A stretch of DNA of 64,000 nucleotides from Catajapyx aquilonaris (taxonomy: Eukaryota): the NCBI GenBank assembly GCA_000934665.2, contig JYFJ02001333.1, positions 1-64,000 on the forward strand. The letters run 5' to 3'. The position numbers and the translations under genes were made by a program. Below are positions 11,040-55,885 of this stretch, in pieces; the stretch's first letter is position 1, and each line of letters begins with the position of its first letter. Below the pieces are notes generated by a model. The model was not told the origin of the DNA and searched no databases. It worked only from the letters and a program-made list of their open reading frames with translations.

Positions 11040-11221
11040 GTGACCTGGCAGATGAAATTACGGGATGGACAGGTGAGTCTGTCCATCACCTGCGGATCAG
11101 AATTGCGGCTGTTGAGCGGAGGGAATTTGGCAGAGTAGCAGCAGAAGCACCATCTCAAAAAAAAAGAAAAGAGGAAAAAAAAAGAAAACAAACAAAAAAA
11201 AATAAGAAGAGAGGCTGGGGG

Positions 11222-16072: not shown

Positions 16073-16474
16073 CCTGGACAATAAATATTTCCCTGGAGAA
16101 GGCTTTCCACCGGCAATAAATTCGCACGCCAAACGTGAAACGAACAACCAACGATCGTCGAATAAACATGAATCATACATGAATCGCCATCTACTCCAAA
16201 TGATGCACAACTAGATGCATCATAATTTTTTTTGTTAAATTAATGTCGACCTGCATATTTAAACGGTGTTTTGGCGTTAAAATGGCAGTTAAAATATTAA
16301 AAACTTTAAATTCAATAATGGGGATAATGTTGGCCGCTTGGAGGCGCAACGTGACTTGTTGACAAGATGGCGCTCATTTGAAGTTTGTTCGATTTCAGCA
16401 GCGGCATCGATCGAAGGAAGAAAAAATAGGTTTTTCCTTCAAAGGTTGAAAAAAGAAGAGGCTAGTGGGGTCCA
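16073..16474. promoter_or_regulatory. Putative bidirectional promoter LSM8/WDR63
   Basis: Head-to-head start codons about 400 bp apart; CpG-containing stretch with YY1-like aagatggcg near 16364. Confidence 0.55.
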
Positions 16475-19400
16475 ATGGGACCCAAAGGCAAAAAAGGAAA
16501 GGGGGGGAAGAAGAAGGGGGCTGTCATCGAGCCACCCAACTTCCCCACAGAATGGGACGGAGAAGGTAATAATATATATTCAATTGAGTCATATGCTAAC
16601 TGCAGTTTATTATTATTATTATTCCACAGTATCCACACAAATGTGAATAGACAGAAATTTTCACCCTAATCACACTCAAATTTGTGTCGAATAGTAATTA
16701 ACAATTATTTAATAGCTTATTAATTATTTAATTAAAGAATACAAGTTGCATATATCATATTTCATATACCAGCATATACACATCACGGCTTTTCCCAAAA
16801 TAGCCCAGTGGATAACGAGGTGGACCCCGCTACCCTCACATGACCAATTATATTTAAAAATAAGTCTAGTATAAGGTGGAAGAATTACTTATTGGTACAC
16901 TATGGAAAATTACAAAGCAAATATTTGTATGAGGGAACTACCTCCAAATAATGTACGTGTAGCGAATGGTCGTTTATTTTGTAAGGGGTACCACCTGGAC
17001 TGGTGCCAGTGTACCTTACAACTGGAACTCAAGATGCCTTGGCTCTTGTGATTGATGTTGATGTGACTCGAGCAGAGCCAAAGAAGTTCATCCCGAAGGA
17101 AGAACTGCTCAGCGACTTAAAAGATAAAGGGCCTGTGTCTGACTTTTATCTCCAGCGCAGCGGGATACATGTAAATACTGACAATCCTTGCTGCGTGTCG
17201 TGTGATTATTCTAGAGCTTTAAAAATATTACTTATTTTTTTTCTTTCCTTCATCTGCCTTGCAGTATTACCCGGATGAAGAAATTATGGTTTACTATGAT
17301 GCGGAGCAAGTTTACGGGGAGAATTTTGCTTTGTGCCTGACTGAGATAGCTCGTGAGTGGTTGATAACCCAGGTCAGCCAGGAGGATGAAGAGGAAGAGG
17401 AGGAAGAATTCCCACAGTTTTGGGAGCCCCTACCAGCACACCCATGGGTAGAGCTGGGCAGTGAGAAGGAAATCGAGGATGCCCAAGTGCGTCCAAACAG
17501 AAGCAAAGTACGTATATTATTAGTCCTTTTATGAGAATGGCATGTACTTAGAAGTATTTTACTACAGTAAAGAAAGTTTTAGATTTGCTTTTGTTTATAC
17601 TTGGTAGAGAGAGGCAAGAAAACTAATGCCTTTAACAGATAAAAGCTTCACTTGTTATATTTTAAAGTGGATATAACTGAGGTTTTAATATGACATAAAT
17701 TACCCACATGCAGATAGGTTTCCTAATGTCGCGGCCAAGGAAGGATTATGGAGTAAAAGCAGTGGACCTGAGCGAAGCGATGGCTCCGTACGAGGAGTTT
17801 ACCACTATTGAGGAGAGCAAGTTCACAATCTTCAGGAAGGAAATGGACACCGCAGTGCAGGTAAAGAGACATTGGTGCTTCCTGATTGGATGTGCAACAT
17901 TCCTGACCTCTTTCTGCAATGTTCAGGCAATACGAGACACAGCGAATCAGGCAACCCAGTCTGAGGTTCGCAAGCCTCAAAACAGGTGGACACAATATAT
18001 TGCCGAATCACTATCAGAAGATGAGCTTGACGATGTCCTGAATTCAGAAGAGCTTGCTGAATTTATGGCTAATGCCTGCGACAAGTATGTATTCGTTCTA
18101 TATCCAAACACCTAGTGTTGATTCATAATTATGTCTAGTACTAATCATGCATGTGATGCTATGGAATCATAATTGCAGTGTGGAGCGGGCCCTGCAGCAA
18201 AATGAGATCATGGATGTGGCAGCAAATGATATCCAGAGCTTGTTGGAGATATGGGGTGAAGACGGGGCTGAAGGAGAAGGTCGTCACAGGTCCGCCACGA
18301 CCGCTAGAGGCACTTCAGAGGCAGCCAGCTCCGACATGAGCATGATCGAGTACCAGTCCATGACAGACCTGCGCCGCAGCAAGGGAAAGCGCATATCCTG
18401 CATGCAGTGGCATCCAGTCTTCCGCGGAGTGATTGCCTTTTCCTGTATGGAAGACATGCTGTTTGAACAGCGGGTGGATCAGCTTTCCCGCCTGCAGCTG
18501 TCACCTCCCAGCATCATCATATGGACCATACAGGACCCCATCCATCCGCAGATTATCCTGCTCTCTCCTGAAGAAGTCTCAGCGTTTGCCTTCATGCCTA
18601 GTCCTCCGTACAACTTAGTGGTTGGTGGCTGTGTCAATGGACAGGTCATTCTGTGGGACATTGAGCAGTGGTGTGACAAGCTAAAGAACAACACTGTGCA
18701 CGTGAAGGAGACCAGGAAGCCACCATCATGGCTCGTAAGTTGTTTTTTTTTTTGCTCACTTTCTTGTACATATTGTGTAGATAATTATGGCAGTTTGATG
18801 ATGCAGTTAACTTGCCTGATACTGGGGTGGAGCAGGGTTTATGTAGTCGTTCCTCTGGTGAGCTAATCGAAGCTCGTGCTTAGTGTGATCTTTTGCATTT
18901 AATTAAGTCTGTCTGGGCATTCACATGCTGTTCCCTCAGTGTCCAGGTAAAAGCTGTCCATGCCATGATCAGAAACATCCAAACTGAGCTTAGCAACAAA
19001 GTCCTGGATTTGATTATTTGTCCTACTGAACTGTAGCAGTCCTAAGTCAACAACTAGTAATCGTGGCAGCCCATAGTGGCCTGTCACGTCAGTAGAATTA
19101 TGCTGCATATCCTGATAGACTAACTCCTTTATTGCAGACTTCAATTGAAAAGGAAATATCCCCCAATGAGCCAGTCCTCCTCGAGTATGCAGCATCCTCT
19201 AATGTTGAGTTCTCCCACAAGAGATGCATAACAGACCTCCAGTGGCTGCCCTCTTTCATGCAGCTAGGGAAGGGAAACCGCCTGTTCGAGGGCGACTATA
19301 ACATCTGCCACCAGATAGCCACCTGCTCTAATGATGGAGTTATAGCAGTCTGGGACATGCGATACGGGCAGGCTGGATTCAGGGAGAAGTCTGTGAACCC

Positions 19401-21412
19401 TACCGACATGGCCAGTGCTCTCGCAGCTGCCTACGGGAAGCAAAACCCGCAGCAAGTGACTGTAGGGAAGACGCCTGAGCAGCTCAAGCACTTGCACCTT
19501 GACCTCGCTTGGAAACCACTCAACAGGGTAGGTTGGCCAACACTTTTCGCCAATCACAGGTATCACTTTCTTTGGCATCTTTCCCCAACTTGTGCTTTCA
19601 TTTGTTCAGTAGGTTCAGTATAAACAGCTAGCTACGGGACTCCTAACAGACATACTGGTTTTTTGTTGAGGTGTAATTTATCAGACATAACTCTTGTCGC
19701 ACTGAATGTATCACTTACTGGTATATTTTCAATTGAAGACCTCGGGGAAAGAACACTCAAGGTCCACTTTTCGTCACAAATGAGTTACATATCTCATTCA
19801 GAAGATAGCTTCACTAGTGTAGAATAATGATGGTTTGCATTGGTTGGGGATAATGATCATAGTCCACTATGAAAGGCTCTGAATTTACAATATAGAACCT
19901 TGTGGACCTTCGAAATTTAAAATTAGAATGTCTCAGTTTCACTGAGGTGGACCTTGATCGTTCCTCCCCCGAGGTCTAAGTTTTTCAGGCATTATAACAA
20001 AATGTAATTGGCACCCAGGATGCCAATAGTGATGGACTAACAATGTCACAAATTCCCTTTTTTTTTTCTCAGATAATGGTTGTATCTGAGAAGCGCAAGC
20101 GTGATATGATGCTGACCCACTTCAGCTTCCATGAGCAGGCTTCAAAACCACGCAAGCTCACAAAGGAGCCAGATCCCGAGCCAGGAAGTGCAGCAGCGGC
20201 TGCAGCTGCTGCAGCAGCCGCTGCGGCAGGATTAGAACCGAAGAAGATGGTCCTCCTGGAAGAAGCTCAGACCCTGATGTACATAGGGTCAGAGGACGGG
20301 GAAGTGGCTCTGATTGACTGGCTACAGAAGACAGATGCCATTAAGGTTGGAGGTGAGTTGCATTGCATAAGTTTTACTCGCAGAGAGCGATGCAATTCTA
20401 CTGTGAAGGAACAAGAAATGCGAGCTATTACTTGTACTGTTCAGTATTTCTTGAAAGAGCTATCCTCTATTACAAGGAAGAACGACATCCAGGTTGATGT
20501 TGGACTTTATTAATAATGCAACTGTTTCCTCCTGCCAGCGGTGAGGCTGGTGAAGTGGGAGGACCCCCATGACGGACCAGTCTTGGGAATTTCCCGCTCC
20601 CCGTTCATCCAGAAACTGGTGGTGACAGTGGGAGGCTCTTGCGTTGCCTTGTGGCACGAAAGTCTGATCAAAAATCTCCTGGTGACAGCAAGCCAGAACA
20701 ATCGTCCAACCTGCGTGACATTTTCTCCGACCAGGCCGGCAGTTTTCTTTGTGGGAAAGCAGGACGGATCGATCGAGGCCTGGGATCTTCTGGAAAGGGC
20801 AGACGAGCCTATTTTGGTGCAGCAGATCTCCGGTGCCAGAATCACCTGCATCCTGGTGCACCATGCGGGCCCCAAGCATTTCTTCCTCACCTTAGGGGAT
20901 TCAGCAGGGACCCTTCACATATACCTTCTGCCCAGATATCTTTGGCGTGGGCACAACCAGGAGGTTGATTGCTCACTACTTTTCACTTATCTAGTGCCTT
21001 ATTTCAAAAGTCTGACAGAACAATCTAATTCACAGTTGTACGCAGTTGAGAGCTTCATTGAGAGAGAAATGAAGAGGCAAACGTACGTGGAAGTGAGGGC
21101 AGAAGAGCTTGTTGCGGAGAAGAAGGTGTTGGATAAAAAGTTCCAGGACATGAAGTCGGTGAGTGTCATAACTCTCAGCCAGGTCATATGCTTATCATTT
21201 ATTTGGCGCTGCAAATTCTTTTTCAGGCTCCACCACCCCTAATCCTGTCCAACAAGGATGAGGAGGCAATGATGATGGAGAAGTTCAGGCTTTACAGGGA
21301 AATGGAAGAGCAGCTGCTGAACTCCATAGGGGTGCAGAAAAAGGTGGGGGAGGAAAAGCCACGGGTGGAGGAGGATATCACCGGTGACAGTCAAGACACT
21401 CTGAGCGTGTAA
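16475..21412 (+). CDS. WDR63: Dynein axonemal intermediate chain 3 / WD repeat protein 63 (~927 aa)
   Basis: Exons 16475-16565, 16986-17170, 17265-17507, 17714-17860, 17927-18084, 18179-18734, 19138-19527, 20073-20352, 20539-20963, 21036-21158, 21227-21412 sum to 2784 nt in frame; WD40 motifs (ISCMQWHP, VVGGCVNGQVILWD, SHKRCITDLQW, SPTRPAVFFVGKQDGSIEAWD). Confidence 0.85.
19737..19977. mobile_element. Intronic MITE
   Basis: agacctcggggaaagaac.ctcaaggtccac / gtggaccttgatcgttcctcccccgaggtct. Confidence 0.65.
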
Positions 21413-23093
21413 AGGTGCGGGCAGCGACTGAGCAAGTCCAGGTGTGCCTGGCTGCCATCAACCAGCACGAGGAAAGTTGGGGTGCCATCCACCAGGTTGT
21501 AGCTGAAACAACACAGGAATACTATTAGTTGCAATGGTCAATTTGTTTGAAACCTGCTACAAGCAAGTTTGTTTTTTTTGTAGCATACACCAGTGAAGCT
21601 TGAAGTTAAATGACTTCAGGTACTTTTTCTCCTAAGCACAGTTTAACTACAACTGTAAAACTGGCCTTTTAGCAATCTTAATAAACTGTTACACTATGTA
21701 TGCATGTAGTTGTGATGTTACTGAAAACATTAACAAACCCAGGTGCAGACATGATGTCCCTCAGGGTGCTTTGTAGAGAAACCTCTTTGAGGCTGCCTGC
21801 TGCTCCCGTCACCTCATGGTAGACTTTGAGTCGGTTGAGTCTGTACTGCCTGGAAGGATCCCATTCTGGAGGATCCTGGAACATGACCCCCAGATGGTCT
21901 GCAAGAGTCTGATCCTCTCTGAATGCCTGGACAATGTCCGACTGGGCATGCTCTGGGTAGAGGAATAGGACAGGCCAGCACAGGAGGGACGGAGAGGTTG
22001 GATCAAAGTGGACCCGGGTTAGTCCAGGCCTGCTTGGCTCCAAGGATCCCAAATCCTTTACGGGAATTCCCTGGCTGCGGATTGATTCCAGCAGGCCTTG
22101 CTCTTCAGCTTCAAGTTTAGCCTTACGACGGCGGTCTCTCTCAACCAGTTTCTGGAAAACATGAGTCAATGTGAGGCACAAACTGCCACTTGTTACAGGT
22201 CGTCAAAGAGCAATGTTGCTCAGTCTCTACACATTTCAACAACCTGGAATTTTGCATTGCACACTGCAATTTTAAAATGTAATCATGATGTGACACACAT
22301 TACATATCACTACTTTTTTAATTTGCTTTATGTTTACGTACACATTTTACATGGAAATACTGAGCTGCTAATTTAAATTCCACCAAAAAGTAAGACACAT
22401 TCAATGCAGCAATTCACCAACCTTGAGCTTCTGCGCTTCCTTCTGCAGGTCATTCAGCACCTGGCTGGTTGGGTCCAGCCCGAGTCCTCCTTGGCACCAT
22501 TCCAGGGCCTCATCTGGCAGCCCCAGCTTCAGGCAGCACTTTGTCCCACAAACCCATGCTTTCAGATGATCAGGGCACAACTGCAGGCAGGACCTGCAGT
22601 CTCTCAGGGCGGAGCGATGGTTCCCCAGACGGAGGTGGGCAGCCGCTCGGTTGGAGAACAGGGTGGCATGCAGGGACTGGTTGGGGCAACGCTGCTTCAA
22701 ACCCTCTGTGTAGTTGGCAACAGCAAAGCGATACTTCTTCAAGCTGAAGTTGTGATTCCCATCCGCCTTGTAGTTGGAGGCCAGATCTTCTGCCGTGTTG
22801 TCGTCCGGATCGTACTTGAGCTGCTGCAGACCCTCCAGAAGGGGATGGAGAGGCTCCCCTGGTTTGGGCGGCTTAGTCATGAAAAAGGGGTGCTTCTCCA
22901 TCTCCTCCTCCCAGCGGTCCTCCGGCCATCCCTCGGTATACTTCTGTCTCGGCAGCCCCATAATGAAATCCTCCAAGTCGTCATTCAGCTTCTCACACAG
23001 CTTCTGCCTGTCCCCCTCTGACATTGGACCAGCTTTGGTGTCCCCAGGTCTTGTGTCCTCCTTACACTCTTGCGCACCATCAATCCCGTCCAT
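21391..23093 (-). CDS. TTC4: Tetratricopeptide repeat protein 4 (Cns1/Dpit47-like HSP70/HSP90 co-chaperone, ~398 aa)
   Basis: Exons 23093-22422, 22151-21739, 21502-21391; EEEMEKHPFFM, three TPRs (YKADGN...NRAAAHLRLGN), wheel domain WPVLFLYPE...DGTPTFLVL. Confidence 0.9.
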
Positions 23094-24228
23094 ATTTGCT
23101 TGATGTCTCTTTGCCCAACAGTTGTTGACTTCTCTCTGTCCACTCTTTCGGTCTGGCCCACTCAGCGTCTGGTCTGGTCCAGAGACGATCTTGCTTCACA
23201 GGGGTACTAGGGAAATAAAACCGAGAGATTCCTTTAGCACGTGGACATGGAAAGACGCCATTGCAAAGTCAAGGTTGGAAAATCACCGCTACTTTAATCG
23301 CCGCTACTTTGATCTCCGCGATCGCAGCTCTGTCGCACGCCACAATTTAATACATATGGACCGGGCACAGTTTTTTGGGGAAATTTCGGCCCAATTTCCT
23401 TCTGAAATTCCAACTGGTATGGGATTCATCTCAGGTCAAGGGATGGTGGAGTTCGGTACTTACCAAAGTTGTAGGCACTACCAACATTTTAATAAAATCA
23501 CATCTGCCTTGTAAGATTTATTTAATTTTTTTAAATTGTGATACTTAAATTTTTAAAACTCAGTAAATAGCAAAAAAAAAACTTTCATCACTTAATAATA
23601 TTATTACTGTATGTACATATCTCTCATCAGTATTCACAACTCTCCTATACTACATAACATTCTGTTAACCATCAACAATAAACATTATTATCAACGTCTC
23701 TCTGTATAGACTTTCTAGTTGCAGGATGACTGATGCAAGCTAAGCGCTATAGCAATTTTCACATTTCTCGGGAAAATACATTCACAAAACATAGGGATAC
23801 ACTTCACATTGTAAAACAAGATAAAAGTAACTAATCTGCAGTTCATAATACAAAATAATAAAATAAATCGACTCTTACCTCATTCTAAAACCACCTCAAA
23901 GCAGCAAAGTGCCATTTAAATCATCAGACTTGAGGACAACAATACATTCATGATCCAATACAAACACATAATTCAGCAGTGCAGAAACACCTCGTACAAG
24001 AAAGTGACAAGTCCGTCAACAGACAAACCGTCTCACACTGGTCTCCCTTCCTTCTTTCGTACGCCTCTGACCACATTGCGTACATCATCTTCAAATACGA
24101 CATTTCATTCACAAACATTTTACTTTAACTGTTACACTGACAGGCAGCATTTAAGTAGGTGACACTTTCAGTACCAAGTCATAGACATGACAATTGCTAT
24201 TTCAGAATTCACGTACACATGGGCTAGT

Positions 24229-24387
24229 ACAGTTTTTGACATAAATCGAGGCATACTGCCAGCAACATTTTCTGACGTGGCAGAAGGAATCTTGCTCGCC
24301 CGGTTTGCAGTGTCTTTATCTTTGATTCCTTCTTCTGCCGCTTCGGAATATGTCGCTAGCAGTATGCCTCGATTAATGTCCAACATG
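24229..24387. mobile_element. Diverged copy of the 14755-14915 MITE
   Basis: cagtttttgacataaatcgaggcatactgccagcaacatttt...gaaggaatcttgctcgcccgg shared with 14755-14915. Confidence 0.8.
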
Positions 24388-27300
24388 TGGTTGCTATTTC
24401 TTCTCGTTACAAGGGTTGGATTGAGTCATGTGCTTGCTAGGCAGCCTACCATGCTAAATTATTAATATGTCTACTGTTAGTCTTACATTACTTCTTTCTG
24501 AGAAATTGCTATAGCTCTTAACATGCTCGGGAGCTAGGGTTAAGTCATTTGAAATGAGCTGGCATTCATTTTTCCACCATGGAAATCCACTTTAGTGCAA
24601 CATGAAAAGTCGCTTGAGTCAGCCACAGTGCAGGAAACAAAAGACGAGTTCATCATGCCAGTTACAGAAAATAGGCCAGTAATCAGTTTCAGTTTAAGTG
24701 CATATTTACCACACGTCAGTGAGTAGTCTTCATAAAAACATTTCATAAGTTACTGCTTGCTTTTTGGCTAGAAAAGTTCACAAGAGATTCTTAAAGTACC
24801 AGCTTGTACCAGATCTTGCATATAATGTCTATTAAAGCATGAAAACAGTCCATCAATTTCCCTTGCATTAAATTATAAGCTCAGTAATCAGAACAACAAG
24901 GCAGGTTACAAGATTCATGAGATGAGAATAGGTAAGACGTGTTGCATAATATAATTTTACAACCAGGGCCAAGTAACTTACAACTGGCATGTGATATATG
25001 TAAGGCATGGAACACATCCCTTTGTTCAGTATCACTGTTAACCAGAAAGCTAAGATATATCTCTGGAATGTGGCACATAATTTTTGCAAAGTGATGCAGT
25101 GACATTTCAAATGACCATCAACCCTAATGCAGTTTACGCACATTTTTAAGGAAAAAGAATTCCTGTGGATGCCATTCAAAGCCTGTCAAGTTGACTAGTT
25201 GATAGATTCGTAGCTGATACATTCAGGGTGATGCATATTTTTTTTATTCCTACATGGTCCCCACTTGGTTTTATTTACCCACAGCTTGTAAAAGCTGTGC
25301 ACATTCCAAGTTCATCCATATCACGTGACAATTTGCAAAGGAACCACCAGAACTTGTCACTCACAAACTTAAGCAGAGAGGAAATGACTTTAAAAATTAC
25401 TTCATTACACTTTCGACAATTTCCAAGCTCTAAAAATTGTGTGCGCGTTTTTGCAAGGACTATGTGATCTTCGGGAAGCATGAAAAGTTGATTATGTAAT
25501 GCTTCAGTCACACTAAATCGTCCTGCTAATCTAAAGGTATCAATTCCACTCCAGAGGCAGTAAAGTGGCTGCCCTATTTTCCATTTTCAAGCATGGTTTT
25601 AACCAAAACTAAATAACAGTAGAAGAAAGGAACACATGCAACTTTTAAAGCCTAATTAGTTTGGTGAATGATCCTGCGCAGCAGAACTAGACTTGCTTTC
25701 CAGCAAATTTAATTTGAAAGCCATCAAAAAGAGACTTCAAAGAGTAACACAAGAAATTTTACATCACAATTTCTATGCAAATTGCTACAAGACAATTCTG
25801 GTAAATCCTTTGCTAGTGTGGTAATAACATGTGCATGCCAAAAACACAGCATCAGCTGGTTTTCAAGCATTGTCATCGCAGTTCCTCCTAACCAAATGGT
25901 AAAACTGTTTCTGACGCTAGTATTACATACCTATTTCATTTTAAGATGACCACTTTTACATTAACACCAATTCAGTCTGTCAAAATATTGAAGTACAACC
26001 AGGCAACACTGCCAACCCTTCAACTAATGCAGTTCAGGTGTTGACAAAAGGCAGTGTTCCAGTTACTGTGTGAAACATTGCATTAGGACATCCTCCCAAC
26101 CTACTCGGAACAAACGTGAGACAATGGAAATGCACGATAATCAACACAAAGAAAGCAGAGGTCTTGTATTGATGAATCATGACAGCTCTATTACTCCTAT
26201 CATTATTAAATGATTTTCAATACCAAATAATTATCTAGGTCACTGATACCTCGTGGTTAAAACTACTTTAAGAATCAAACTACAGAATTACAGCATGTTG
26301 ATTTAATGAAAGAAGCATATCTTCTAAGAAGTACGTTTGTGGTGACAGCTATTTTCGTATCTTTTTATTGAATTTCATAAATTGTTACGCTTGGGAGTGT
26401 TAGTCCTCTCAGCAATGCTCAGTCACAGCAATTCTATTGTAGATTATCAACCAAAATGAAATGGAAAAACATATGTAAGCGTTTCACCACAACCATATCT
26501 GCATAAATGTATCATCCACATATTTAGTGCTCAGTGGTTTACATCGCAACAGATCTCAGTCCACTCTTATATGTACTACTGTATAAACAATACGTGTAAT
26601 AAATAATAACCTATCATGTAGCTACAGAAAGATAACAGTGTCATTAGATCAACCCGCTACATAATAATCGTTTGACTTTCACGTACAAGGCAATTCTGGA
26701 TTAAAGACACAGTAATCATCCACTAGTGTTATATTAATTCTGTTGCCCTTTCAAACACGAACCAATAGCAGTTACAAAAAAAAAAGGCAATAATTATTGT
26801 ATCTTGAATTCTGGACCACCCTGTACTACAAAGTGATGGTGCAGTGTAATTTCAGCCACTACCAAAGTAAATAAATTATGAGACTCTTTCAAATACATAA
26901 AAAGACAATATTGGTTCACTGGAGTAAGGGACATCAGCACTGATTATGGCACACATGTCTAATTGAGCAGACGTAATAAGAATAATTATTAAACCTGCCT
27001 CAAGTCAGTCTACAAAAGGATGACTTGAAACAGGCAGAATCATCACTGGATTTATACACTGCAAAGGGCCATCAAGTCGGTGACAACTCGGGTGTCATAA
27101 CCGTGGAAGCACAAAGCCCTAGGTCACATTACCCACAAATATAATGACAAGAATAATGTGGCCTTAACTATTAATAAAATCACTGCATTTATGCATATCT
27201 CATGATATTAGGCGGCATTACGAATATAACCTTGCTAGCCTGACCACGTAGTAAATTAAAAGCATCCCATTCAAGAAAAACCACCCTCTATAGATTGGCA

Positions 27301-27676
27301 GAGACATTACAAATATCTGCTGCTTTTTTTCTGCTTGCATGCAACATTTCCGACAAAAACTTATTGCATAACTTCAGCATGACATATTTTCAGCCTTTAT
27401 ATAATTGCATCATGATTGTGAGGCGTGGTTTCCCTTACGATAAGGATTTAAACATAGTGTGACTTTGCAGCATGTTTATAACCCAGTGAAGCAAACTCAC
27501 ACTGAAGTATTTCTGTGTGTGTCGTATTTATCAGTTCCCCTGAACATGTAGGGATACCTGATTTCTTGGTATCTAATAAGACAAAAGAAAAAGCATACAC
27601 TTGCACTTTGGCAATTAAAACCACTTCAAATCACCTTTGATTTTCAAGTTCATCATGATGAATTGGCAACACGGCA

Positions 27677-29600
27677 TCAAGCATCATCATCATCATCCCA
27701 GTCGTCAGCCCCATTCTCATCATTTTCATTGTCATCGTCGTCGTCATCTGAGTCTGAGTCTGAATGTGTGGCCCGCATCCTCTCTGCCAAAGCACGTGCC
27801 AGTGCTCCTGCTAGTCCACCTAGCTGGTCGGCATCCATGCGCGAGCTGGCAGGGCGCTGCTCAGGTACAGGCCGTAGCTCAACCCCAGTACGAATCTGAT
27901 CGAGGAGTTCCCCACGGCTGTCAATTGAGCGACGAGGTTCAACTTCTGTGGGCTGTAAGAGAACAAGAGGGTCAAATATAATCATAGCCTTGAAAAATTA
28001 ATCTGAGAAGTTAGGAACCTAGCTGCGCAGAATCTTTCAAGCATCATTTGCGAGTTGAATCTTACCTTCAGGTTTCCTCCGGATCGTATTGCCTCCAAAA
28101 GCAAAGAATGTGAGTCGGTTAAAGATGGGGGTGGTGATGAAATGTTTGCAGGTGGGGGAGGAGGTGGAGGTGGAGGCGGAGGAGGAGGTGGTGGTGCTGC
28201 AACTGATGATACTGACGAGGGGGATGTGAGGACTTGTGTGTGTTGAATCTGTGGTGAAGGAGTGAGATGAAAATTAGGTGAAGCATTGCAAGTGGCATTT
28301 GGGGGTGGTGGTGGTGGAGGAGGATGGTGCTGCATTGGTGGGGTCCTGGCAGGTACAGGTGGGGGAGCAAATGGAATGCGAGGAGAGCTTGTGGGAGGCG
28401 CAGGGGCCAAGTGCTTAGGTGGTGGTTGCCGAACTGGGGGTGGAGGAGGTGCATGGTGGGTGTAGTGTGCTTGTGCCTGAGAAGGAGATGGTGGCGGAGG
28501 GGCAGCTGGAGGCGATGGTCGCACTGGGGGCTGGTTGGCAATGTCCCGCTTCAGAGCCTCCATTCCTCCATTTTTGTCGATGAAGTCATATATGAAGTCC
28601 TGCGTCTTCTTCTTCTTCAGATGCTTCGCAGTGATCCCAATTTGGTCAAATATTTGCTGCAGGTCTGGATCTAAATTGTCCATAGCAAAACCCTGGTTGG
28701 GATCCCAGCCAACGTGAGACACATGCTTAAAGTCAGTTGGAAGACTAATGTCCGCCTTAGTTAGCTTGCGCCCGCCTCCACCACTTCCCGCGCTGCTGAC
28801 ACTCTTTTTAGAGAGAAGGCTGGTCTTCCTGGTGGATGCAAGTCCAACTCCAGCCATCCCTCCCATGCCCATCCCACTCCTAGTGACGACCACCTGAGGA
28901 GAGGAAACGGGCATAATCCCTGGCGAGGACATGATGGTCCCATTGGGTATGGGCTGAGCAGATTGCGCTCGCCTCCTGTTGCGCTTCTGTTGAAGCTTCA
29001 TCTCCACAACTTGACCAAACACTTTTGCTTCATCCTCATCAGCGAAGTTCAGCCCAGCCATTCCATTCTGTCAAAAAATGTACATATGAAGTTCCTAATA
29101 ACGAATCCTGCAACATTATTTTTAAGCAAGCAGCGGACATTAGCAAGTACAGCAATAATGACTTACATCTGCTTCAAATGTGTGAAAGAAGGTCCTTGCC
29201 ATCTTGTATTTGAATTGGTTATAAACCTCCTGTTCCCACAGCTTGACATGATGTGTGAGGGAGAAGATCTGGATGAAGTAAGAACGCTTCACATTGTCAC
29301 GCACAAAGCAAGCTACCCCGCAGGCTTCTTTGAACCATCCATTGTGGTCTGGTGGACGAGTCATAAACAACTGCACTACAGTTGTGGCCAGGGTCTGCAA
29401 AAATTAATTGATTAAGAAAATTTAATTCATCAAATGTTCATCAACATGTCACGCTAAGGGTTACTCACAAGGCACCGATTGCCAATGAGCTGAAATATTA
29501 GATCATTCTCTTCCTTGTTCAGTAATAAAGAACATTTGTTGACTGCTGCAGGACGCCGAGAAGACGGAGCTCCAGGAGGAAGTGGTGGCGCTTGTGACAT
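27677..29600 (-). CDS. WASp: Wiskott-Aldrich syndrome protein family member, N-WASP-like (~545 aa)
   Basis: Exons 29600-29469, 29394-29167, 29067-28066, 27952-27677; WH1 domain, CRIB (ADISLPTDFKHVSHVGWD), polyproline, two WH2 motifs (LLEAIRSGGNLK, LLDQIRTGVELR), central and acidic DDWD tail. Confidence 0.95.
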
Positions 29601-42539: not shown

Positions 42540-43170
42540 ACTTACGGTAAATGCGCATGCCTCCAGTTGGTGTACGACCAACGTTCTGTAACCTCACCGT
42601 GCTCTGCATGTTCCAACCCTCCCAGCCCAACTAGGCTTGTCCAGTGTACCTCATCAGCTCACCTGGTGTTCCCTCCATCCCTTCTGTTCCGTGTCCGGGC
42701 AGGCACGCCCCTGTGCTCCACACACCCACACACACACTACCCGGCGCGTCCCTCTCTCTCTCTCTCTCAGCCTGGGAACATGACTCCGGGGCTAAATCCG
42801 GGCGGTTCGATGTCTGCCCGTGTCACGCACCGCACCGCACGCAGCCTGCTGCTCCTTCCAACCGCAATCGCTGGCTGTGCTGCACGCCTAATCTACCTGC
42901 CACCCACGGGGGATAGGGGGCGGGCCGGGCGGCCTCTAGACCTCCTCGTCTCTCTCTCTCTACCACACACTGCACGGGCCCCGCCACCGGGGAAAGGGTC
43001 GAGGGCGGGCGGGCAAGGAAGGGCTCTGAGGGAATAGTAAAAAAGAAAGAAGGGGAAGATTACAGCAGGGACTCGGGGGGGGTGTGGGTAGTGTGGATGA
43101 TCGCGCACCACGCAGCTCACAACGCTCATCGGATTTGTAGTACTATATCGATGCGACGTATCGATGCAGC
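42540..43170 (-). promoter_or_regulatory. CpG-rich probable promoter/first exon of the Myb/SANT-like gene
   Basis: GC-rich block, GC boxes, minus-strand donor-like sites (~42545, ~42663), two TATCGATG DRE-like motifs at ~43146 and ~43159. Confidence 0.5.
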
Positions 43171-43243
43171 CCACCCGGTTCAAATCAGGCATTATTACAG
43201 TAATATTGTTCTGTACTGTACTGTACGTATACTCATACACGGT

Positions 43244-43315
43244 ATCATCATCATCATCATCACCACCACCACCTCCTCCATCATCATCATCATCATCATA
43301 ATCAAGCACCACCAC

Positions 43316-43347
<32 letters not shown>

Positions 43348-43364
43348 TAATCAAGCACCACCAC

Positions 43365-43427
<63 letters not shown>

Positions 43428-43428
43428 A
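43244..43428. repeat. (ATC)n microsatellite with an internally duplicated unit
   Basis: Runs of catcatcat separated by a repeated aatcaagcaccaccacctc. Confidence 0.95.
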
Positions 43429-44238
43429 ATTCACAATCTGTCACTCCACCCCATAAACAAGTTGACTCATAACATCTTGCTCATCACCTACAGTAGCTTT
43501 CACTTTCCTTATTCAACAATTAGAGGACAGAGTAGTATCTGGTAGTATATAGTGCCCGGTGGTGATTCACTTAGATGACTGTCACTTACAAAAGTTGGGA
43601 ACACACCTTGATTTTGTTTTTTTAGCATATAAAAGAACATATTTTTTTAAAAAAAGGTGACGCGTAAGTTTTGCATGGCTTAGCGGTCATAGTGACACAA
43701 GTGGTGTGTGTGTGTGAGTTTCAGCTTCAGGGCTTTCCAAACATATTTATTATTGGCAATGTTACAACCTTACCCTGTTACAACCAACCCCAATCTCCCT
43801 TATAACATCATGGAGGAAGGTCAGATGGATCATGTTTCAATATCTCAAAAAGGTCGTGAAGCTCTCTGACTGTTTTTGACAATTGCCTGCAAAGTCAATG
43901 TGGGGTTGGGAAAGCATTTAAAAATTTCTACAAACAGTAGCCTACAATTAAAGTGTATTTAATGACACCAATGCAACACTGATTCCTCTGAATATATTCA
44001 CTTTTTTTTTGTTTCTTATAATATCTTGCATACAGTAGGTATAGAAGAACATCCTTGCTTATAATTGCTATATCTGCTGAAGTCAGCAAAAACATCGCAT
44101 TATAATCATCCTCATCAGAGCTTTACAATCATAGTCAGAACCTTGCGGACGACTCAACAACAATAAATTAAAATATCTGATAAATATGAAGTAAATAAAT
44201 ACACTGTACTCCTGATTATCCAGGGGGTTGGATTCATC

Positions 44239-44845: not shown

Positions 44846-45550
44846 TTCATGAATCCACCCCCAGGTGCGGATTATTATCTGTGCATCGCCACAAACAAAA
44901 GTTAGAAATTCAAGTCCGAAAGAATGCCAATATATCTCACAAACACAGAAATATAGCAGACTTTATCCAGAAGACAAAATAAAAATCTATGGTAAATGTT
45001 ATTTTTTTCCGATTAAACCTTATTCCAGTGCTTCCCAAAATGTGGGTCACGAACATAATATATGTAGAACCATTTCCAGATCATCCGTGTTTTCTGATTA
45101 TCCAGACACACCTGTTCATTAATCATCATGGATAATTGGTAGTACAGTGCATTGGAACTTTTCACTTAAATATCTGGTAACATCACAATTGAAAATGTCA
45201 TTCCTGATTCCACCTGAACATAACTTTCCAGAGACTTTGTTGTCTGGGCTTAATCCAAGGCAGGGAGTGGCAAAAGGTACCATGAAAAATAGTCTTGCGT
45301 ACTGTGACATCCCACTTTACTTTTCCAGCGGTCACCTACTTCTGCATACACTTCACACTTTGTTGCAAGCAGTTGTGCATTGTATTACGTTGGGATCGTC
45401 AGGTGGTCCGTTGTAGGATGACCAGCACTGGATGCTACTTGCATGTTTGGATGGCACAACCAATTCCTAGTTAGGTCGAGACCAGATGGGAAGTTTCTTG
45501 ATGTACCTGTAATCATTACTGGGTTAACCACTCACAGAGACAGTAATACT

Positions 45551-46681
45551 TTAACAACTGCAACATTGTGTCATTTCCTGACCTTGGTTGCAATGCTGAA
45601 TTGCAAGTATTGAAATCGCCTTGTTTACAAGGTATGATGACAAAAGGTCAGGGCTTTCGTCTGTGCAGTTTTTCTTGCCATTTTCTGCTTTCTTTTCATG
45701 TGGTTTTTGGGCAGTCTCCTCTGTTATCTGAGCAAGATCCTCTTTCGACAGACCTTTGGAGTTGTTTGAAGATTCATTCTTTGTACAGCTGGCATCATCA
45801 CGTGGAACTCCAAATGAAATTTTGTAAGATGTGTTGAATATTTTGCGGTACATGTTTTCGTAGGCCTTTGATTCTGGATACCTCTCTTTGTACATTAGGT
45901 AGAGCTTTCCTACAGAAAGATAAAATTTGGTAATTTAAATTAATATACCCTGTGTAAACAAGATCATGTAATGGGCGATACTTACTGACATTGAGATCTT
46001 CACTGAGGTAAAAGACCTTGGCTTTTTTTGTACTGTTATGTGACTTGTGAGCCATCAGTGACTTAATGTGCTCATGCACAGTCTGAATATCACTTTGTGG
46101 AACAAGACCGGGATTCTTTTTGTGTCTGCCACGTTGATCCTGAGGACTTCGAGCATACGTTGTGAGACTTTTCTTCAAGTATTGTAGCCGCCTGTTGGTA
46201 ATTCCAAAAATGCTCAGCATCGCCTTGTAGCAAACACGGATGTCCAAAGGACGCTCATCTCGGAGTACATGCAACTTGTACTTGTAAGAGTGGTCCTTCT
46301 CTTTAGCACCTGCACGTGGCCTTCTTCGCCTGACATGTCCGCACGTAATCATTGAGCAGAGGAACGCGTCCTGTTCATCTTTGGATCTGAGTATGTTCAT
46401 GTATGCGAGGAGTTCACATCTCTCCTGTTCAGTTACATTCTTGTAGCACTCCCATCTCACACACTTGCAATCTTCACCTGTAATGTTAAAATTATTATTA
46501 TTATTATCGCCCAGACTCTGCCAGTAAAATCAATATACAGACATATTTGTCGAGTAATGTCACCTGGCACATGTGATGCGAGTCTCAGCCTCTTCTTTTC
46601 TTCCCTAGCGTTGACCGTACCCCTCTTCCGCCTCTTTGGCTTGCTGGCCAGTTCAAGCGACGATTCCTGATCGCTCGACAT
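45551..46681 (-). CDS. Spliced DNA-transposase-derived ORF (~322 aa) apparently lacking the catalytic domain
   Basis: Exons 46681-46564, 46477-45986, 45909-45551 (969 nt, in frame); C-x-C..C N-terminus, EQDAFL, VCYKAMLSIFGIT..RL, DQRGRH, HIKSL..SH, YL.EDLN...LY..Y, YRKIFN...ISFG.PR.D, resembling Sola1/Chapaev-like transposase N-termini (family uncertain). Confidence 0.65.
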
Positions 46682-47375
46682 CCCTTTTTCTTCAATCACC
46701 ACCACCAGTACAAGAACTCAGGAAGATGTTCCATTCCAATATCCGAGTTTTCGAATATTTCCGCACCAGGGCGCTGGGGTGCCACATTTTCATTCTTAAT
46801 CCACATGCTGAATATTTGGAATTTAACCTCGTAGTGAATATTTAGATTTTTCATTTTTTATAATTCGGTAAAATCGACGTATTGTGCAAGACGGCCATTA
46901 CAGGGCGGGCCATTCGAATATTTCCACATTATAAACACAGTACATTATCAAAGAAGCCAATAGAAAAGGGCCAGTGTTAATAATAGGTTAGGATGTAAGT
47001 TTAACCGTGGAAATGCCCCTGTTAAATGAGTAACAATGTGCTTACAAAACTTAGCCATATAGTACACAATGGAGCATTTATCCTCTGCATAGCCCTGGAA
47101 AGATGGGATCATTGTAAACACAAAGCATAAACCAAATAAGAAACAAAAAAATGGAAAAATTTGGGCAGTATTTCTATAGTACTCAGCTTCTTGAATCATG
47201 AGTATATGAGTGGAAATAATTACAGACAAAATCACATCAATTTTTCATTCTTCTTGTCACAATAAAAAAATATAATGACGATCCATCCTCTGAATATGCG
47301 CAAGGAACACTTTTAATCTGGGACTGCAATATTGTAAATTGACCATGTCAACTAAGAATCTTAGAGTCTCAGCAA

Positions 47376-47566
47376 TGTACTATTAACCGCAGAGTAATGT
47401 CACACTGTCGTTATGTGACGGAATCCACGACTTGGTGTTTAGCATGGGTTTGCCGAGTTACAGATGTTAATTTGGCAATATTCCGCAATCCACAACCCAT
47501 GCTAAACAACAAGTCGATGACACCATCACATAACAATGCGACAGTACTTTTGCGGTTAATAGTACA
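47376..47566. mobile_element. MITE
   Basis: tgtactattaaccgca.agta..gtc.ca.tgt / acagtacttttgcggttaatagtaca. Confidence 0.7.
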
Positions 47567-47735
47567 CATATTTATCAAGGGGTGGTACGTCCTTCAGATG
47601 CAGCCATATTACTCTTTCTGGTGTAAAATACTCAACATTGAGTTTTTGACTACTGACTGCAAGTACAAAATTATAAAAACAACATGATGAATCCTTAACA
47701 GAATTATTATGCAAAAGTCTGCTACACCATGTGCC

Positions 47736-50700
47736 TTAAATCTCAAAGCTTAGTTCCTGAGTTATGTGAGAAAGATCGTTGATCTGGTCAGTTCGCAACC
47801 TCTCTGCAACCTGATTCACCTTGGCCTTCAGAGAGTGCACCACATGAGATCCATAGTTTCCCCCATGCCTTAAAGTCTTTTCATAGAAAGCTTGATACGT
47901 CAGGTAGAGCACCTCATCTCTCCGCAAATGTTCACAGCAGCCTTGAAGAGACATTCTTGCCCTCTTGGCCGGCAAGCCAAAATCAGTAGTAGCCCTCCGC
48001 TTGGTTCTCTTGTGACACTTGTCCTCACTAAGACACTCATTCACATTTGTGCACTGTAGTTCCACCTGTTGGCACTTGTTCCCAAATATACAGTCTGCAG
48101 GACTGCTTTCAGTGGGATGACCATAGTCGCCCCCAAAGCGCCAACTGCCACCACGCAGCATGTCCCACAGCCTGTCCCCAAACCCCAAGATGCAGTTTAT
48201 CAGAAATTTAGGGTTGTCCCTGAATGGCTGATGAGGACCCTTGCTACATTTTTTAGGAAAGGCAAGAAGGATGCCATGAAAACGCAGGGAGGCCATAAGG
48301 CAGGCCTGCCATACATTCCTCCTGATGCGCTCCAGAGAGTTGTAGGTGGGATCCACCAACATCGAGCCACACTTCAGGGTGTAGGGCATCCGGCGGAGGC
48401 TATTGCGGAGGGCTAGGCCAGGCTTGGCACACCGACTCATTCGCATAGAATGGATCATATCTTGTGATGAGTAACTACTGTAGTCGCCACGGGTGTGCAG
48501 AGTGCTGGGATCCAGTTGGATACCACAGAAGGAAAACCATGCATCAGACCTCAAGCAGTTGACCTGAAGGAGAAATAAGCTATGAAGTTGAATCTTATAA
48601 TTACTCCACCTACTATTAACAGAGTAGTTAATTACAAATGTTTTCTTTCACCCTTTTGAGATATCAGCTTCCGAAGAACACCATGAATGATACCATGCCA
48701 GAAATTCAACAACATCTGAAGCTTTGTGAGCAAGTGAGTACATATGCTTGTTACAAATTCAATCATACATGCAAAAGTTACTATTTTCTCATTTGTTCCC
48801 TTGATATTCCAGTTCAATTGATCTAGAAAAGTATTGATCATGCATTATCACTACAGCAAAGCAACTAACCATGGGATCAGGAAGATTGGTGGCTGTCTTA
48901 GTAACATTGATCTTGCAGCCATACTCAGCAATTCCACCAGACATCCTCTGCAAGAAACTCTCCGCCCTCTCCTGACATGGTGTTATGAACAAGTAGTCAT
49001 CCACTGCTCGAATGAATATTTCATCTCCATGCCCTGTATATTCTTTCAAGACAGTGGCATCCATGTGCCCATAGTACAAGTCACACAGTGCGGATGACAG
49101 ATTGGCACCCTGTGGAATGCCTCTTTTCATCTGGAACAGCTGACCTTTGAACCGAACTGTTGCAGATAGGTTCTGTATAATCTCATTTGCAATTATTGGC
49201 ACATTGACGTAGCCTACAACTTTGCGCTCTCCAATAACACAGTTTGGCAGCAGGTCCTCTGGGTAACCATCTCCAAGTAGGGTCACCTTTCGTGATTTCC
49301 CTACCTTTACAGGGTTGTTACGCAGTGGCCTTGAAATAACTAGTGCCATTTCCGGCAGGTTCTGGCTTGTGATCTCAATGAGTTGTTCTAGGACTTGCTT
49401 CATCTTTTCATGCAGTATGCTCCCATACGCATCACATATGTCAAGTCGAACGTAGTATAGCTTGTCGCCTGGTTCAAAACAGTTCTCCCGTAAATTACTC
49501 CACTTTTCATGCAGAAATGTCAGGTTGCGTGGGTTGACCCTGTCTGCATTCTTCTGCACCCAGTAATGTAGAAGCATAAGGTGTTTCTTGGTTTTTCCCA
49601 CAGGTACACTGGCAGGACGCATCATGAGCGGACGAATCCCATTCCCTTTGGGCATGAAGCGTAAGATTAGGTGATCCCCTGTGTTCTCTGGCTCCAGTTG
49701 TTCCTCCTGGTTATTCTCCAGGTTCACATCCTCAAATTCTGGCACAGTAAGAGGCTCCAGACACTTTTGCTTCAGCTTGTCTAAGGCCTCCACTTGCATA
49801 CCTTGCCACATTGGCTTGGGATAAAAATAGAGCTGATATCGGCGGCGATTCTGTGGAGTGACATACATGACACAGGATACCGCCACAAGGGCATAATGAA
49901 TCAAAAGCCAAGAAAACACCCGTGACAACAGTGATAACCGCAGTGAGTGCCTGGATATTGAGCCAAGCCATGCCACTCCTTTTACGCCCACTCCTGACAT
50001 GACCTGTCCCAGTGACATGACCTGATACTGTCCCATAAGCACTGCCTGCTTGGACACAGCCAATAATCGGTTGCGGTTTTTCTCAGTTCCCAGAAGCTCA
50101 ACAGGCACCACTTTTCGCAAAACAGTGCGCACGTACTTTGCTACCAGTTTTGGGTCAACACAACTGTTCAGTGAAGCACCGTTGCTTTTCACCAGACTCT
50201 TGAAGACAGACCAATACCTCGTGCTTTTGTGATTTTTGATAAAAGTTGCGAGAAGTGGTCTGAGGGGGTTGAGGGCCATGTTGGTTGACGTTATTTGCAT
50301 TACTCCAGGACCCACATCCTCTGTGATAATGGAATATACCAAGTGTTCTATTGGGTCACCTTGACGTACTTCCATTTGGGAGAGCACATGCTGCACAGGC
50401 CAGCTCATCCCGACAGTCGGGCTGTGCAGCATAGTCTTTATTGACACTGGATGTGACGCTCGGTAAGGGACTAATCCATCCGACGTCATCTTGACTGCCT
50501 TCGTCTTTCCACAAGGCAACACCTCCGTATTTATGTTGGTTGACGGGTACACTGATACTGTCATGACTGCAGTAGATCTCGACTCAGGCATTTGAGATGG
50601 AGCAACCACCGAGGGCATTTTTCCTGCCACCCTTTTCTTGCCTTTCACTTGCACTTTGATCTTCAGCGGTGACCCATTAAGCTGCAACCATATCCCCGGC

Positions 50701-51074
50701 TTCACCTCTCTAAACACGCAGCACTTGAGAACCAAAAACTTCAGAAGTGGCATCCCATACGAACTGTACAGCCTCTTCCAACAGGGATCCTTTTGAACCA
50801 TAAGCAGAAATTCACTCTCCATGCGATCTTCCGACTTGGTCACATACCTCCCAGCAAGTTGCTCACATGCTTCCTCAAAAGTTTGTATGGAGTCAGTAGG
50901 GGTCAAGTTAGGAGCATAGCTGTATGCAACTACAAGCTCCCCTAATGTGAAAGACGTAGGATTTGGCTGAATGTTCATAATAACTGACCCAGAATCCTTG
51001 CCTTCCAGGACATGTTTCGATATGAACTGAAGAAACGTTTCCACATGCGTATAGGTCTTAAGGAGCAGTTCCAT
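47736..51074 (-). CDS. TERT: Telomerase reverse transcriptase (~1010 aa, two exons)
   Basis: Exons 51074-48870 and 48563-47736 (phase-0 GT-AG intron); TEN/GQ-like W..L...G..LL..L....VF...W.QL.GSPL; QFP (VVPVELLGT.KN); T-like MYVTP..YQLYFYPKPMW; motifs 1/2 LRFMPKGNGIRPL; A LDICDAYGSI; B' GIPQGANLSSALCDLYY; C RAVDDYLFIT; D YGCKINVTKT; E WFSFCG. Confidence 0.95.
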
Positions 51075-51277
51075 CACTCCGGATGAATTTTTCTGCAGAT
51101 ATCAAGACGTATCAAGATGATCTATCTCTCCCTCTTGATGGCTTGTTTCTGTGCTGCCCCCTACGGCTGATGCCCCGGGGCCGCCCCTGCTCCAGTTACG
51201 CTCTCCCGCGCTCAATGCAAGCAGTCCACTGCCATTGCATGGATGTGATGGTGGTGGTACCTGGTGGTGGGAAAAAG

Positions 51278-51340
51278 AACTGAATATTCATCTTGCAACC
51301 CTGCACATTCAAGTATCGATACAACCCAAGAATATCGATA
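51278..51340 (-). promoter_or_regulatory. Putative TERT core promoter: two DRE motifs plus Inr
   Basis: TATCGATA at 51314-51321 and 51333-51340; minus-strand TCAGTT at 51283-51278. Confidence 0.6.
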
Positions 51341-52840
51341 ACCGCAACCTTTCGAATGTTGCACATCACTTTCCAATTTCATTTTAAAATGATGTGTTTT
51401 CAGGTCTCATTTCTGATATTTTCATCAATTGAATGCTATCAACAATACTACATTAGTACAGCACATTACTATGTTGCATAATGGTTCTCCAAATGCATTT
51501 AGAAGCAATTTCACCATCATTCATCACTTAACAATTTCACGGTAATTGAGATCAGCATATAAATACACAAAGACTTGTGATATCCTTCTTCAATTGAGGC
51601 CCAACATTTTTTATTCATTACAATACATGATAAGTAGTGATAATCCTCACTTTTCTTGTCACACAGTACCAGTGAAGTGACTCTTCCCAACAATCCTTTC
51701 TTAAATTGCCTTTTTTAAAATTTATTGATCACACAACATGCTTTTCTTTCTGTTGTTTATCTGGTTCCTTTTCTTTTTTTTGCATATGAAACAAGACCAC
51801 CAAAAAATGTACATGTCAAAAACAAGGGTCAGAAAGAAAAGTCGGTCTGCAATAATATTGGGGCTGGAATGGTCAAATAATATATTCTACACGGATAGTA
51901 ACACTTCACACACTAGGGAAAGTTATGTGAGTAGAGAGAAGATATATAAAACAAAGTAGGTACATGGAGAAAAGAAATTAACAATGAAAGCGTATGGGTT
52001 GCAAAGTTCATTGCATTAGGTTCCTATGAGGCCACTCCCTCTTGTGGAAATCACTCAAAAAGAATCCCCACCAACACACTGAAATGTTATGTACAATTTT
52101 ACAAGGGCAAACAAATACCAACCCTGCATTTTACGATATTTTGAAATAGTCATTGCCGTTATGATGTTCCAGTGGCTGAAGCAACTGGTTGTGAGGCCAG
52201 TCCACTGGAAGGCATGGATATCTCATGTCAACAGTATGCATGGTATCCGAGTGATTTATGATTAGCGTGGATTTTGTTCCTGATGTGTGTTCCTTGTGCT
52301 GCACTTTCGATAAAAGCATTTCCCAAGGGAAGAACAGAAAGGCTCTCTATCACTCTTGTGCTGCGACAACATGCTTGCTTCTCTACTTCCACAGCAAGAC
52401 AGGCAGATTACAGACACAATATCTTTATTTCTATGCTGTTAATGACATGGGAAATATGTGACAAGCACGTGAGACATTTAGGTGCCTTCTGCGTAAGACG
52501 AAAGACGCAGTGTCAAAATCTTGTCACTGCACCAAAATCCACACTAATAACCAGGCTCAGTATATTCAAATGTTTCCTACAAGTAGTGTGTATCAAAATT
52601 GAGGAGAAAAAAAAAATGATTCACCCCACTCAAGTTCATGCCTCTCCATATGAATGTGCCACCATCACTTATTTCTCTCTTCCACATCCTTAGCTTATGC
52701 CTTTTTGGAACCACTCGAGTAATCTTTGAAATATTTAATTTTTATTTTATTTTGTAACGTTCCATTTCCACCTGTCCAGCGGATGCAAGTTGTTCCAACT
52801 AACGCCCATCAGTTTCTCCTTTGCATACAAACTTGTATAA

Positions 52841-55885
<3,045 letters not shown>

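Follow-up and report, generated by a model that had tools for sequence, protein, structure and literature searches.

Telomerase reverse transcriptase (TERT) is the catalytic subunit that copies a short telomerase RNA template onto chromosome ends. An N-terminal TEN (GQ) domain is a typical feature, though some members lack it, and in other telomerases it serves to anchor DNA and contributes to repeat-addition processivity; the T motif of the RNA-binding domain (TRBD) has the consensus FFYxTE ... FFYRKxxW. Here, we describe a TERT gene in a stretch of 64,000 nucleotides (the window) from Catajapyx aquilonaris (GenBank assembly GCA_000934665.2, contig JYFJ02001333.1, positions 1 to 64,000 of the forward strand), where two coding exons on the minus strand specify a predicted protein of 1010 residues.

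A survey of TERT genes counts 15 introns in human, one in Daphnia pulex, three in Parhyale, and none in aphids and Lepidoptera, and states that the GQ motif is lacking altogether in arthropods (PMC5405514). The insect TERT genes studied in a second paper are intron-free, and the Tribolium and Spodoptera proteins are without TEN and TRAP (PMC11892584); at least 10 exons are reported for the TERT gene of a termite (PMC11976694). In human TERT (hTERT), reverse-transcriptase (RT) motifs D and E both lie in exon 11 (PMC5372583), and residues K499, E565, and R622, with E565 in the T motif, have been proposed to regulate the stepwise insertion of template nucleotides (PMC12712713).

We put a probability of roughly 85% on the reading that the gene described here is the genome's TERT and encodes the full ancestral four-domain enzyme of an insect-like (pancrustacean) arthropod. 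It is a divergent but ordinary hexapod-type TERT, and a known kind of intron-poor gene.

Results

A TERT gene of two coding exons

Two long open frames, 47736-48647 and 48789-51101, follow each other in the same orientation on the minus strand, and joining them across one intron gives the 1010-residue protein, in agreement with an initial annotation of the sequence that had called a TERT of about 1010 residues in two exons. For independent evidence we used contigs from X5, a sequencing run from a second sample and a different study than the source. Among the runs that contain the sequence, four were DNA runs of the probable source sample, X5 accounted for a small share, and none was listed as RNA. 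The parts of the gene are as follows.

48870..51074, minus strand: TERT coding exon 1, residues 1-735 (735 codons), containing TEN, the linker, TRBD, and RT motifs 1, 2, A, IFD, B', C, and D; from the open reading frame, its translation, Pfam, and X5 contigs
48564..48869, minus strand: single 306-bp intron with GT..AG ends, in phase 0, separating RT motifs D and E
47736..48563, minus strand: TERT coding exon 2, residues 736-1010 (275 codons) plus the TAA stop at 47736-47738, containing motif E along with the C-terminal extension (CTE); from translation and Pfam TERT_C
48513..48539, minus strand: RT motif E, WFSFCGIQL, residues 744-752 (core WFSFCG, residues 744-749), which aligns to the FPWCGLL consensus
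51075..51601, minus strand: upstream interval of about 527 bp for the TERT promoter and 5' untranslated region, placed by the presumed end of the flanking transcript

The donor (ATG followed by GTTAGT) and the pyrimidine-rich acceptor (TTTCTCCTTCAG followed by GTC) delimit the intron, and both frame and homology run on across the join; the splice itself is predicted from these signals and from the homology on its two sides. A scan for a GTRAG donor with a pyrimidine-rich acceptor, a rule that weak donors escape, found 0 further in-frame introns in either exon. The upstream frame has its first ATG at 51074, with an in-frame stop nine codons before it, and residue 1 already aligns with the starts of other TEN domains.

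X5 behaves like RNA-derived data because spliced joints (76 bp, CT..AC) occur among its contigs in the neighbouring gene on the minus strand. Its contigs are identical (0 differences) to exon 1 at 48889-49209, 49329-49508, and 49843-50023; at a depth of about 3, these pieces are compatible with weak TERT expression, short of proof. X5 contigs also heavily cover 51602-53063 (depth about 150), a stretch without a long open frame, and stop beside an AATAAA; this is probably the 3' end, with a long 3' untranslated region, of the gene upstream of TERT. Loose X5 ends at 52977-53063 suggest splicing of that transcript to exons farther up. With this presumed end only about 530 bp away from the TERT ATG, an extra upstream coding exon is unlikely.

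We consider it very improbable that the gene as modelled is an artefact, either of introns or exons hidden behind the two-exon structure or of a sequencing error at a proline codon of the T motif. The splice junction has no RNA-contig support, and an insertion of roughly 50 residues in the CTE could in principle hide an in-frame intron; against this, no candidate in-frame intron with a GTRAG donor was found in either exon, the X5 pieces in exon 1 are colinear with the genome, the interval before the ATG leaves little space for an upstream coding exon, and the N-terminus matches the TEN starts of other TERTs from its first residue.

Family membership and catalytic residues

Pfam assigns Telomerase_RBD (PF12009) to residues 311-433 (1.6e-21, 77.2 bits with a cutoff of 25), RVT_1 to residues 521-728 in exon 1 (3.8e-11), and TERT_C (PF21399) to residues 62-136 of exon 2 (2e-10, 41.5 bits with a cutoff of 27). 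RT motifs 1, 2, A, B', C, and D are encoded by exon 1 and motif E by exon 2. An alignment of 67 sequences shows no variation in the columns of K476, R481, D545, D692, D693, and K726, and almost none in those of Q655 and G656; because the former columns are invariant, the motif 1/2 residues, the catalytic aspartate triad, and the motif D lysine are all in place, and the intact RT motifs that the initial annotation had read from the sequence are borne out.

The best solved relative by sequence (phmmer) is human TERT at 5e-35, with Tribolium TERT at 1.6e-9; the Pfam and human matches lie well outside what chance would give. An exhaustive search of 1.84 billion representative proteins returned 1496 matches, the best at 29-33% identity, and those among the top ten that carry names come from cockroach, Mormon cricket, stick insect, centipede, planthopper, and oyster. 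A word-indexed protein search with exon 1 gave no match at E <= 0.001 among 7999 candidates. To judge from these searches, the lineage has no close relative in the protein libraries covered, the best identity being 33%. The protein matches 43 of the 59 columns with at least 80% conservation, fourth lowest of the 67 sequences; the same score is 68% for planthopper, 71% for a Daphnia-like sequence and stick insect, and 76% for cricket and centipede. By this measure it appears as divergent as arthropod TERTs generally. In a FastTree phylogeny of 30 TERTs, it falls in an unresolved grade of insect TERTs, on a branch of length 1.74, and outside a supported clade (97) of Daphnia, centipede, lophotrochozoan, and vertebrate-like sequences.

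An N-terminal TEN domain and a long fingers insertion

The first three domains of the protein map as follows.

50664..51074, minus strand: TEN (GQ) domain, residues 1-137, from signature residues, an AlphaFold2 model, and Foldseek
50460..50663, minus strand: probable disordered TEN-TRBD linker, residues 138-205, with pLDDT <50 at residues 141-191
49755..50459, minus strand: TRBD, about residues 206-440, with a CP-like stretch (residues ~283-296) and QFP; Pfam PF12009

A short TEN/GQ-like N-terminus had been proposed initially, and both sequence and predicted structure agree with it. Of 44 TERTs, 42 share the conserved residue in the column of W99, 42 in that of G107, and 40 in that of Q131, and all three are present here. 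The AlphaFold2 model of residues 1-150 has a mean pLDDT of 82.8 and a pTM of 0.77, and in a Foldseek search of the PDB ranks 1-14 were all TERT TEN domains, with human at TMq 0.66-0.70 and probability 1.00, followed by Tetrahymena and then yeasts. The central TEN stretch of vertebrate-like sequences is missing here, as it is in the cockroach and stick-insect proteins. The modelled TRBD, the second domain whose structure the initial annotation had proposed to predict, matches K. lactis, Tetrahymena, and vertebrate TRBD structures in VIA alignments with Z scores of 17-21 over residues ~202-446; TRBD-only structures start aligning at model residues 202-211. The CP-like and QFP stretches, placed by alignment consensus, are what we take to be the motifs of those names.

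Over residues 1-735, the model of all of exon 1 (pLDDT 80.8) can be superposed on human telomerase (Z 23.6, 634 residues, rmsd 4.9 Å), but on the TEN-less Tribolium TERT only over residues 206-735. We regard these model-based matches as corroboration, not as an independent test. Motifs A and B' are 110 residues apart, a spacing (IFD) that ranges from 70 to 132 in the alignment, with most sequences at 105-132, and that resembles other TEN-bearing TERTs in the alignment. The model of this region places strands 576-581, 594-599, and 612-619 between helices 555-570 and 625-636, at a pLDDT of only 44-64.

Compared with other TERTs, the CTE carries an insertion of roughly 50 residues (window 47900-48130 in exon 2, about residues 880-955). 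It is cysteine-rich, and its KRTKRR and PAKRAR sequences resemble by eye a putative bipartite nuclear localisation signal.

The W, G, and Q signature of TEN/GQ also occurs in a Daphnia-type protein (P0006), in Periplaneta (P0003), and in Saccostrea (P0011), and by eye the stretch can also be recognised in two more Daphnia-type sequences (P0284 and P0286). On these sequences, the published statement that arthropods lack the GQ motif looks outdated. Our literature searches found no paper describing TEN in non-holometabolous arthropods, although one may exist.

The initial annotation had gone on to suggest a lineage-specific telomerase architecture. The comparisons speak otherwise: TEN-TRBD-RT-CTE is the canonical order, residues 1-735 of the exon-1 model superpose on human telomerase, the TEN signature is shared with cockroach, Daphnia-like branchiopod, and oyster TERTs, and intron-poor TERTs have already been described (PMC5405514).

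A T motif without its acidic residue

Two features concern the T motif and a second residue considered with it.

49806..49874, minus strand: T motif, residues 401-423, CVMYVTPQNRRRYQLYFYPKPMW, with non-consensus M403, P407, Q408, and P419, from column counts
50028..50030, minus strand: codon of Q349, which the phmmer alignment with human TERT places in the hTERT K499 column

The string CVMYVTPQNRRRYQLYFY, quoted in the initial annotation as a non-canonical T motif with proline for glutamate, lies at residues 401-418. Column counts over 66 aligned TERTs put four positions off consensus. Position 403 is M here and F in 63 of the 66; position 407 is P here, E in 48, and D in 15; position 408 is Q here and T or S in 57; and position 419 is P here and R in 55. 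Retained are Y404 (Y in 62 of 66), T406 (T in 65), and W423 (W in 64), and the distal F417/Y418 pair is canonical.

The P407 codon is CCA, at 49854-49856. An X5 contig (49843-50023) is identical over M403, P407, Q408, and most of the T motif, and because this contig, with 0 differences over the proline codon, comes from an independent sample, P407 is not an assembly or sequencing error. Moreover, a change from a glutamate codon (GAA or GAG) to CCA requires at least two base changes. Sequencing error, which the initial annotation had itself named as a possible source of the variant, is already largely refuted.

The alignment to arthropod TERTs proposed at the outset upheld the claim of an unusual residue, P407 departing from an E/D column, but not its singularity. 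In pairwise comparisons with 147 of the best 150 matches, the column holds E or D in 121 and neither in 26, counts that pass through T motifs too divergent for pairwise alignment to be fully reliable. When 10 of the 26 acid-less relatives were looked up, nine had names, all of them insects (a thrips, six Hymenoptera, a water bug, and a cricket); the Neodiprion and Schistocerca T motifs are likewise without the acidic residue. Because all nine named acid-less relatives are insects, the acid-less T motif is a recurrent insect condition rather than a singular one. The motif appears to have drifted here, as it has repeatedly in insects.

Human K499, E565, and R622 correspond to Q349, P407, and R472, so that the R622 equivalent is kept. 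Of the 66 aligned TERTs, 61 carry K or R in the K499 column. Base and acid are both canonical in 60 of the 66, and two of the three acid-less sequences are also without the base (Fisher's exact p = 0.014, ignoring relatedness). These counts hint that the K499 and E565 columns may be coupled and that both residues have been given up here. That Q349 and P407 form a co-adapted change, with the template strand handled differently while a full TEN and a long IFD are kept, we regard as doubtful.

Intron loss and the question of a retroposed copy

Because hTERT motifs D and E share exon 11 (PMC5372583), the retained intron probably matches no human intron in position. Daphnia-type open frames, 901-957 residues long, are unbroken from Met1 through motif E and break in the CTE, after ...KIE; an annotated D. 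galeata protein continues past this break. Because these frames break in the CTE, the Daphnia intron would lie elsewhere than the intron in the window. In P0005, a protein that clusters with Daphnia, there is a break two residues past the NLP lying behind motif D, no more than a codon from the intron described here. A metagenome scan with P0005 gave two sequences, L001 and L002. L001 is 84% identical to P0005 with motifs D-E uninterrupted; it may be a spliced transcript or an intron-less relative, and is compatible with the intron being shared or not.

The near absence of introns had suggested a possible origin by retroposition. A processed retrogene would have no spliceosomal intron in its coding region, and this gene has one, of 306 bp with GT..AG ends. 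By eye, no poly(A) tract or target-site duplication was seen in 47150-47780 or 51040-51800, marks that an old insertion could lose. The general intron loss already known in this clade is enough to account for what is seen, with no need for retroposition.

A related proposal, that the gene is a retroposed or duplicated TERT paralogue which lost its introns via mRNA, now evolves under relaxed or otherwise changed selection, and may serve outside telomeres, strikes us as clearly unlikely. It would explain the degenerate T motif, with M403, P407, Q408, P419, and Q349 all off consensus, and it draws on the long branch, on the scope for another copy elsewhere in the genome, and on the single intron of this gene set against the at least 10 exons reported for termite TERT (PMC11976694). 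Opposed to it are, in addition to the spliceosomal intron and the lack of visible retroposition marks around the gene, the intact catalytic residues and four domains, a conservation score like that of other arthropod TERTs, and the uninterrupted Daphnia-type frames from Met1 through motif E; intron-poor TERT is also usual in crustaceans, aphids, and Lepidoptera (PMC5405514). Word depth over the source-sample DNA contig that spans TERT is 33.3, compared with 30.7 in the flank, a weak hint of a single copy.

Flanking and other genes in the window

In the TERT 3' flank, window positions 47450-47566 hold a short, highly repeated element, where the word depth of source-sample DNA contigs climbs to about 1000 from about 33 on either side; joints between opposite strands indicate an inverted-repeat structure like that of a miniature inverted-repeat transposable element. 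A spliced X5 contig confirms two 76-bp introns in the gene downstream of TERT (45210-46473, minus strand), whose 243-residue main open frame (45798-46529) has no Pfam match. At 42893-43429, simple-sequence DNA yields poly-Met, poly-Asp, poly-Ser, poly-His, or poly-Ile runs, depending on frame.

The other genes identified, in 9906-29070, are ordinary animal genes.

9906-10595: C2H2 zinc-finger protein
18129-21242: WD40-repeat exons
21678-23195, minus strand: TTC4/Cns1
27982-29070, minus strand: WASP-like protein with a PBD/CRIB domain and long proline runs

The best matches of TTC4 (22401-23195, minus strand) are insects at 47-56% identity, namely mayfly, beetles, locust, and dragonfly, in keeping with an insect-like pancrustacean host. 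Rfam gave 0 matches over the whole 64-kb window, and with them no candidate for the telomerase RNA, a divergent form of which the initial annotation had proposed to co-evolve with the protein.

Discussion

The gene encodes a protein in which the N-terminal, RNA-binding, RT, and C-terminal regions of TERT follow one another in the usual order with the catalytic residues in place. The enzyme is probably active, and probably handles the template strand differently from the human enzyme. In the scheme that we favor, it comprises TEN, a linker, TRBD with the T-motif beta-hairpin, an RT domain with a 110-residue fingers insertion, and a C-terminal thumb encoded by exon 2. Nearly all ancestral metazoan introns have been lost, as in other pancrustacean TERTs, and one kept between motifs D and E. 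The E565 equivalent is proline and the K499 equivalent glutamine, with the R622 equivalent (R472) retained.

Several observations weigh against this reading. First, the branch is long (1.74), and the tree leaves the placement of the protein unresolved, with no firm sister group. Second, no RNA-derived X5 contig spans the intron junction or reaches exon 2. Third, the structural models were built from a TERT alignment, so that their resemblance to TERT structures is partly expected, and the TRAP part of IFD lies in the poorly modelled stretch (pLDDT 44-64). Fourth, the co-variation count depends on five odd sequences and on the accuracy of the alignment, and four well-conserved T-motif positions plus Q349 being off consensus could also mean relaxed constraint. 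Finally, a second TERT copy may lie elsewhere in the genome. Neither specialist point, the arthropod TEN or the K499/E565 coupling, alters the identity of the gene.

The gene adds a complete four-domain TERT from an arthropod lineage without a close library relative. Clear TEN domains in arthropods support a TEN loss confined to some groups, such as Tribolium and Lepidoptera (PMC11892584). The combined loss of the T-motif acid and the K499-column base is a small, testable hint about template-entry residues. Were the pair co-adapted, the enzyme might show altered stepping, an altered repeat-addition rate, or an unusual RNA structure flanking the template, and the gene would offer both a natural test of the T-motif gate and a hexapod-side reference for timing the loss of TEN and TRAP in beetles and moths.

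Comparison with known TERTs

Human TERT (7qxa, 7trd, and 9shz) has the same four-domain order, and model residues 1-735 align to chain residues 11-915 with Z scores of 21-24. The two also share the TEN fold (TMq 0.66-0.70), the conserved GQ glutamine column in which Q131 falls, and R472 at the position of R622. The proteins differ in that identity in the structural alignment is about 23%, the TEN described here is about 40-55 residues shorter and misses its central segment, and the equivalents of E565 and K499 are proline and glutamine. At the gene level, human TERT has 15 introns (PMC5405514), compared with one here, and the intron retained here separates motifs D and E, which in hTERT both belong to exon 11 according to the source quoted above (PMC5372583).

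Among arthropods, the polyneopteran TERTs of Periplaneta americana (XP_069689925.1), Anabrus simplex, and Bacillus rossius are the best matches, at 29-33% identity, and the nearest rows in the tree. The Periplaneta protein, of 1093 residues, has the same TEN W/G/Q signature and the same shortened central TEN segment. The T motifs of these three differ in keeping the acid (YFYVTD, HFYVTE, and FFYVTE), and the termite gene has at least 10 exons (PMC11976694). Daphnia TERT, represented by D. galeata CAH0109737.1 and the Daphnia-type frames, resembles the protein described here in its TEN/GQ region and in a very intron-poor gene, but its frame breaks in the CTE rather than between motifs D and E, and its T motif is canonical, HFY(A/E)TET.

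The 'minimal' TERTs of Tribolium castaneum and Lepidoptera share with this gene few or no introns and the TRBD, RT, and CTE, and Tribolium 3du5 aligns with model residues 206-735 at a Z score of 15.8; TEN and the long IFD set the protein described here apart from them. In pairwise alignments, T motifs without the acid also occur in insect TERTs, from Neodiprion, Cephus, Venturia, Microplitis, Fopius, Ooceraea, Schistocerca, Gryllus, Frankliniella, and Ranatra. Most of these proteins are shorter (595-864 residues), and several are degenerate along the whole motif, whereas the protein described here retains the Y-x-T core and the distal FY..W.

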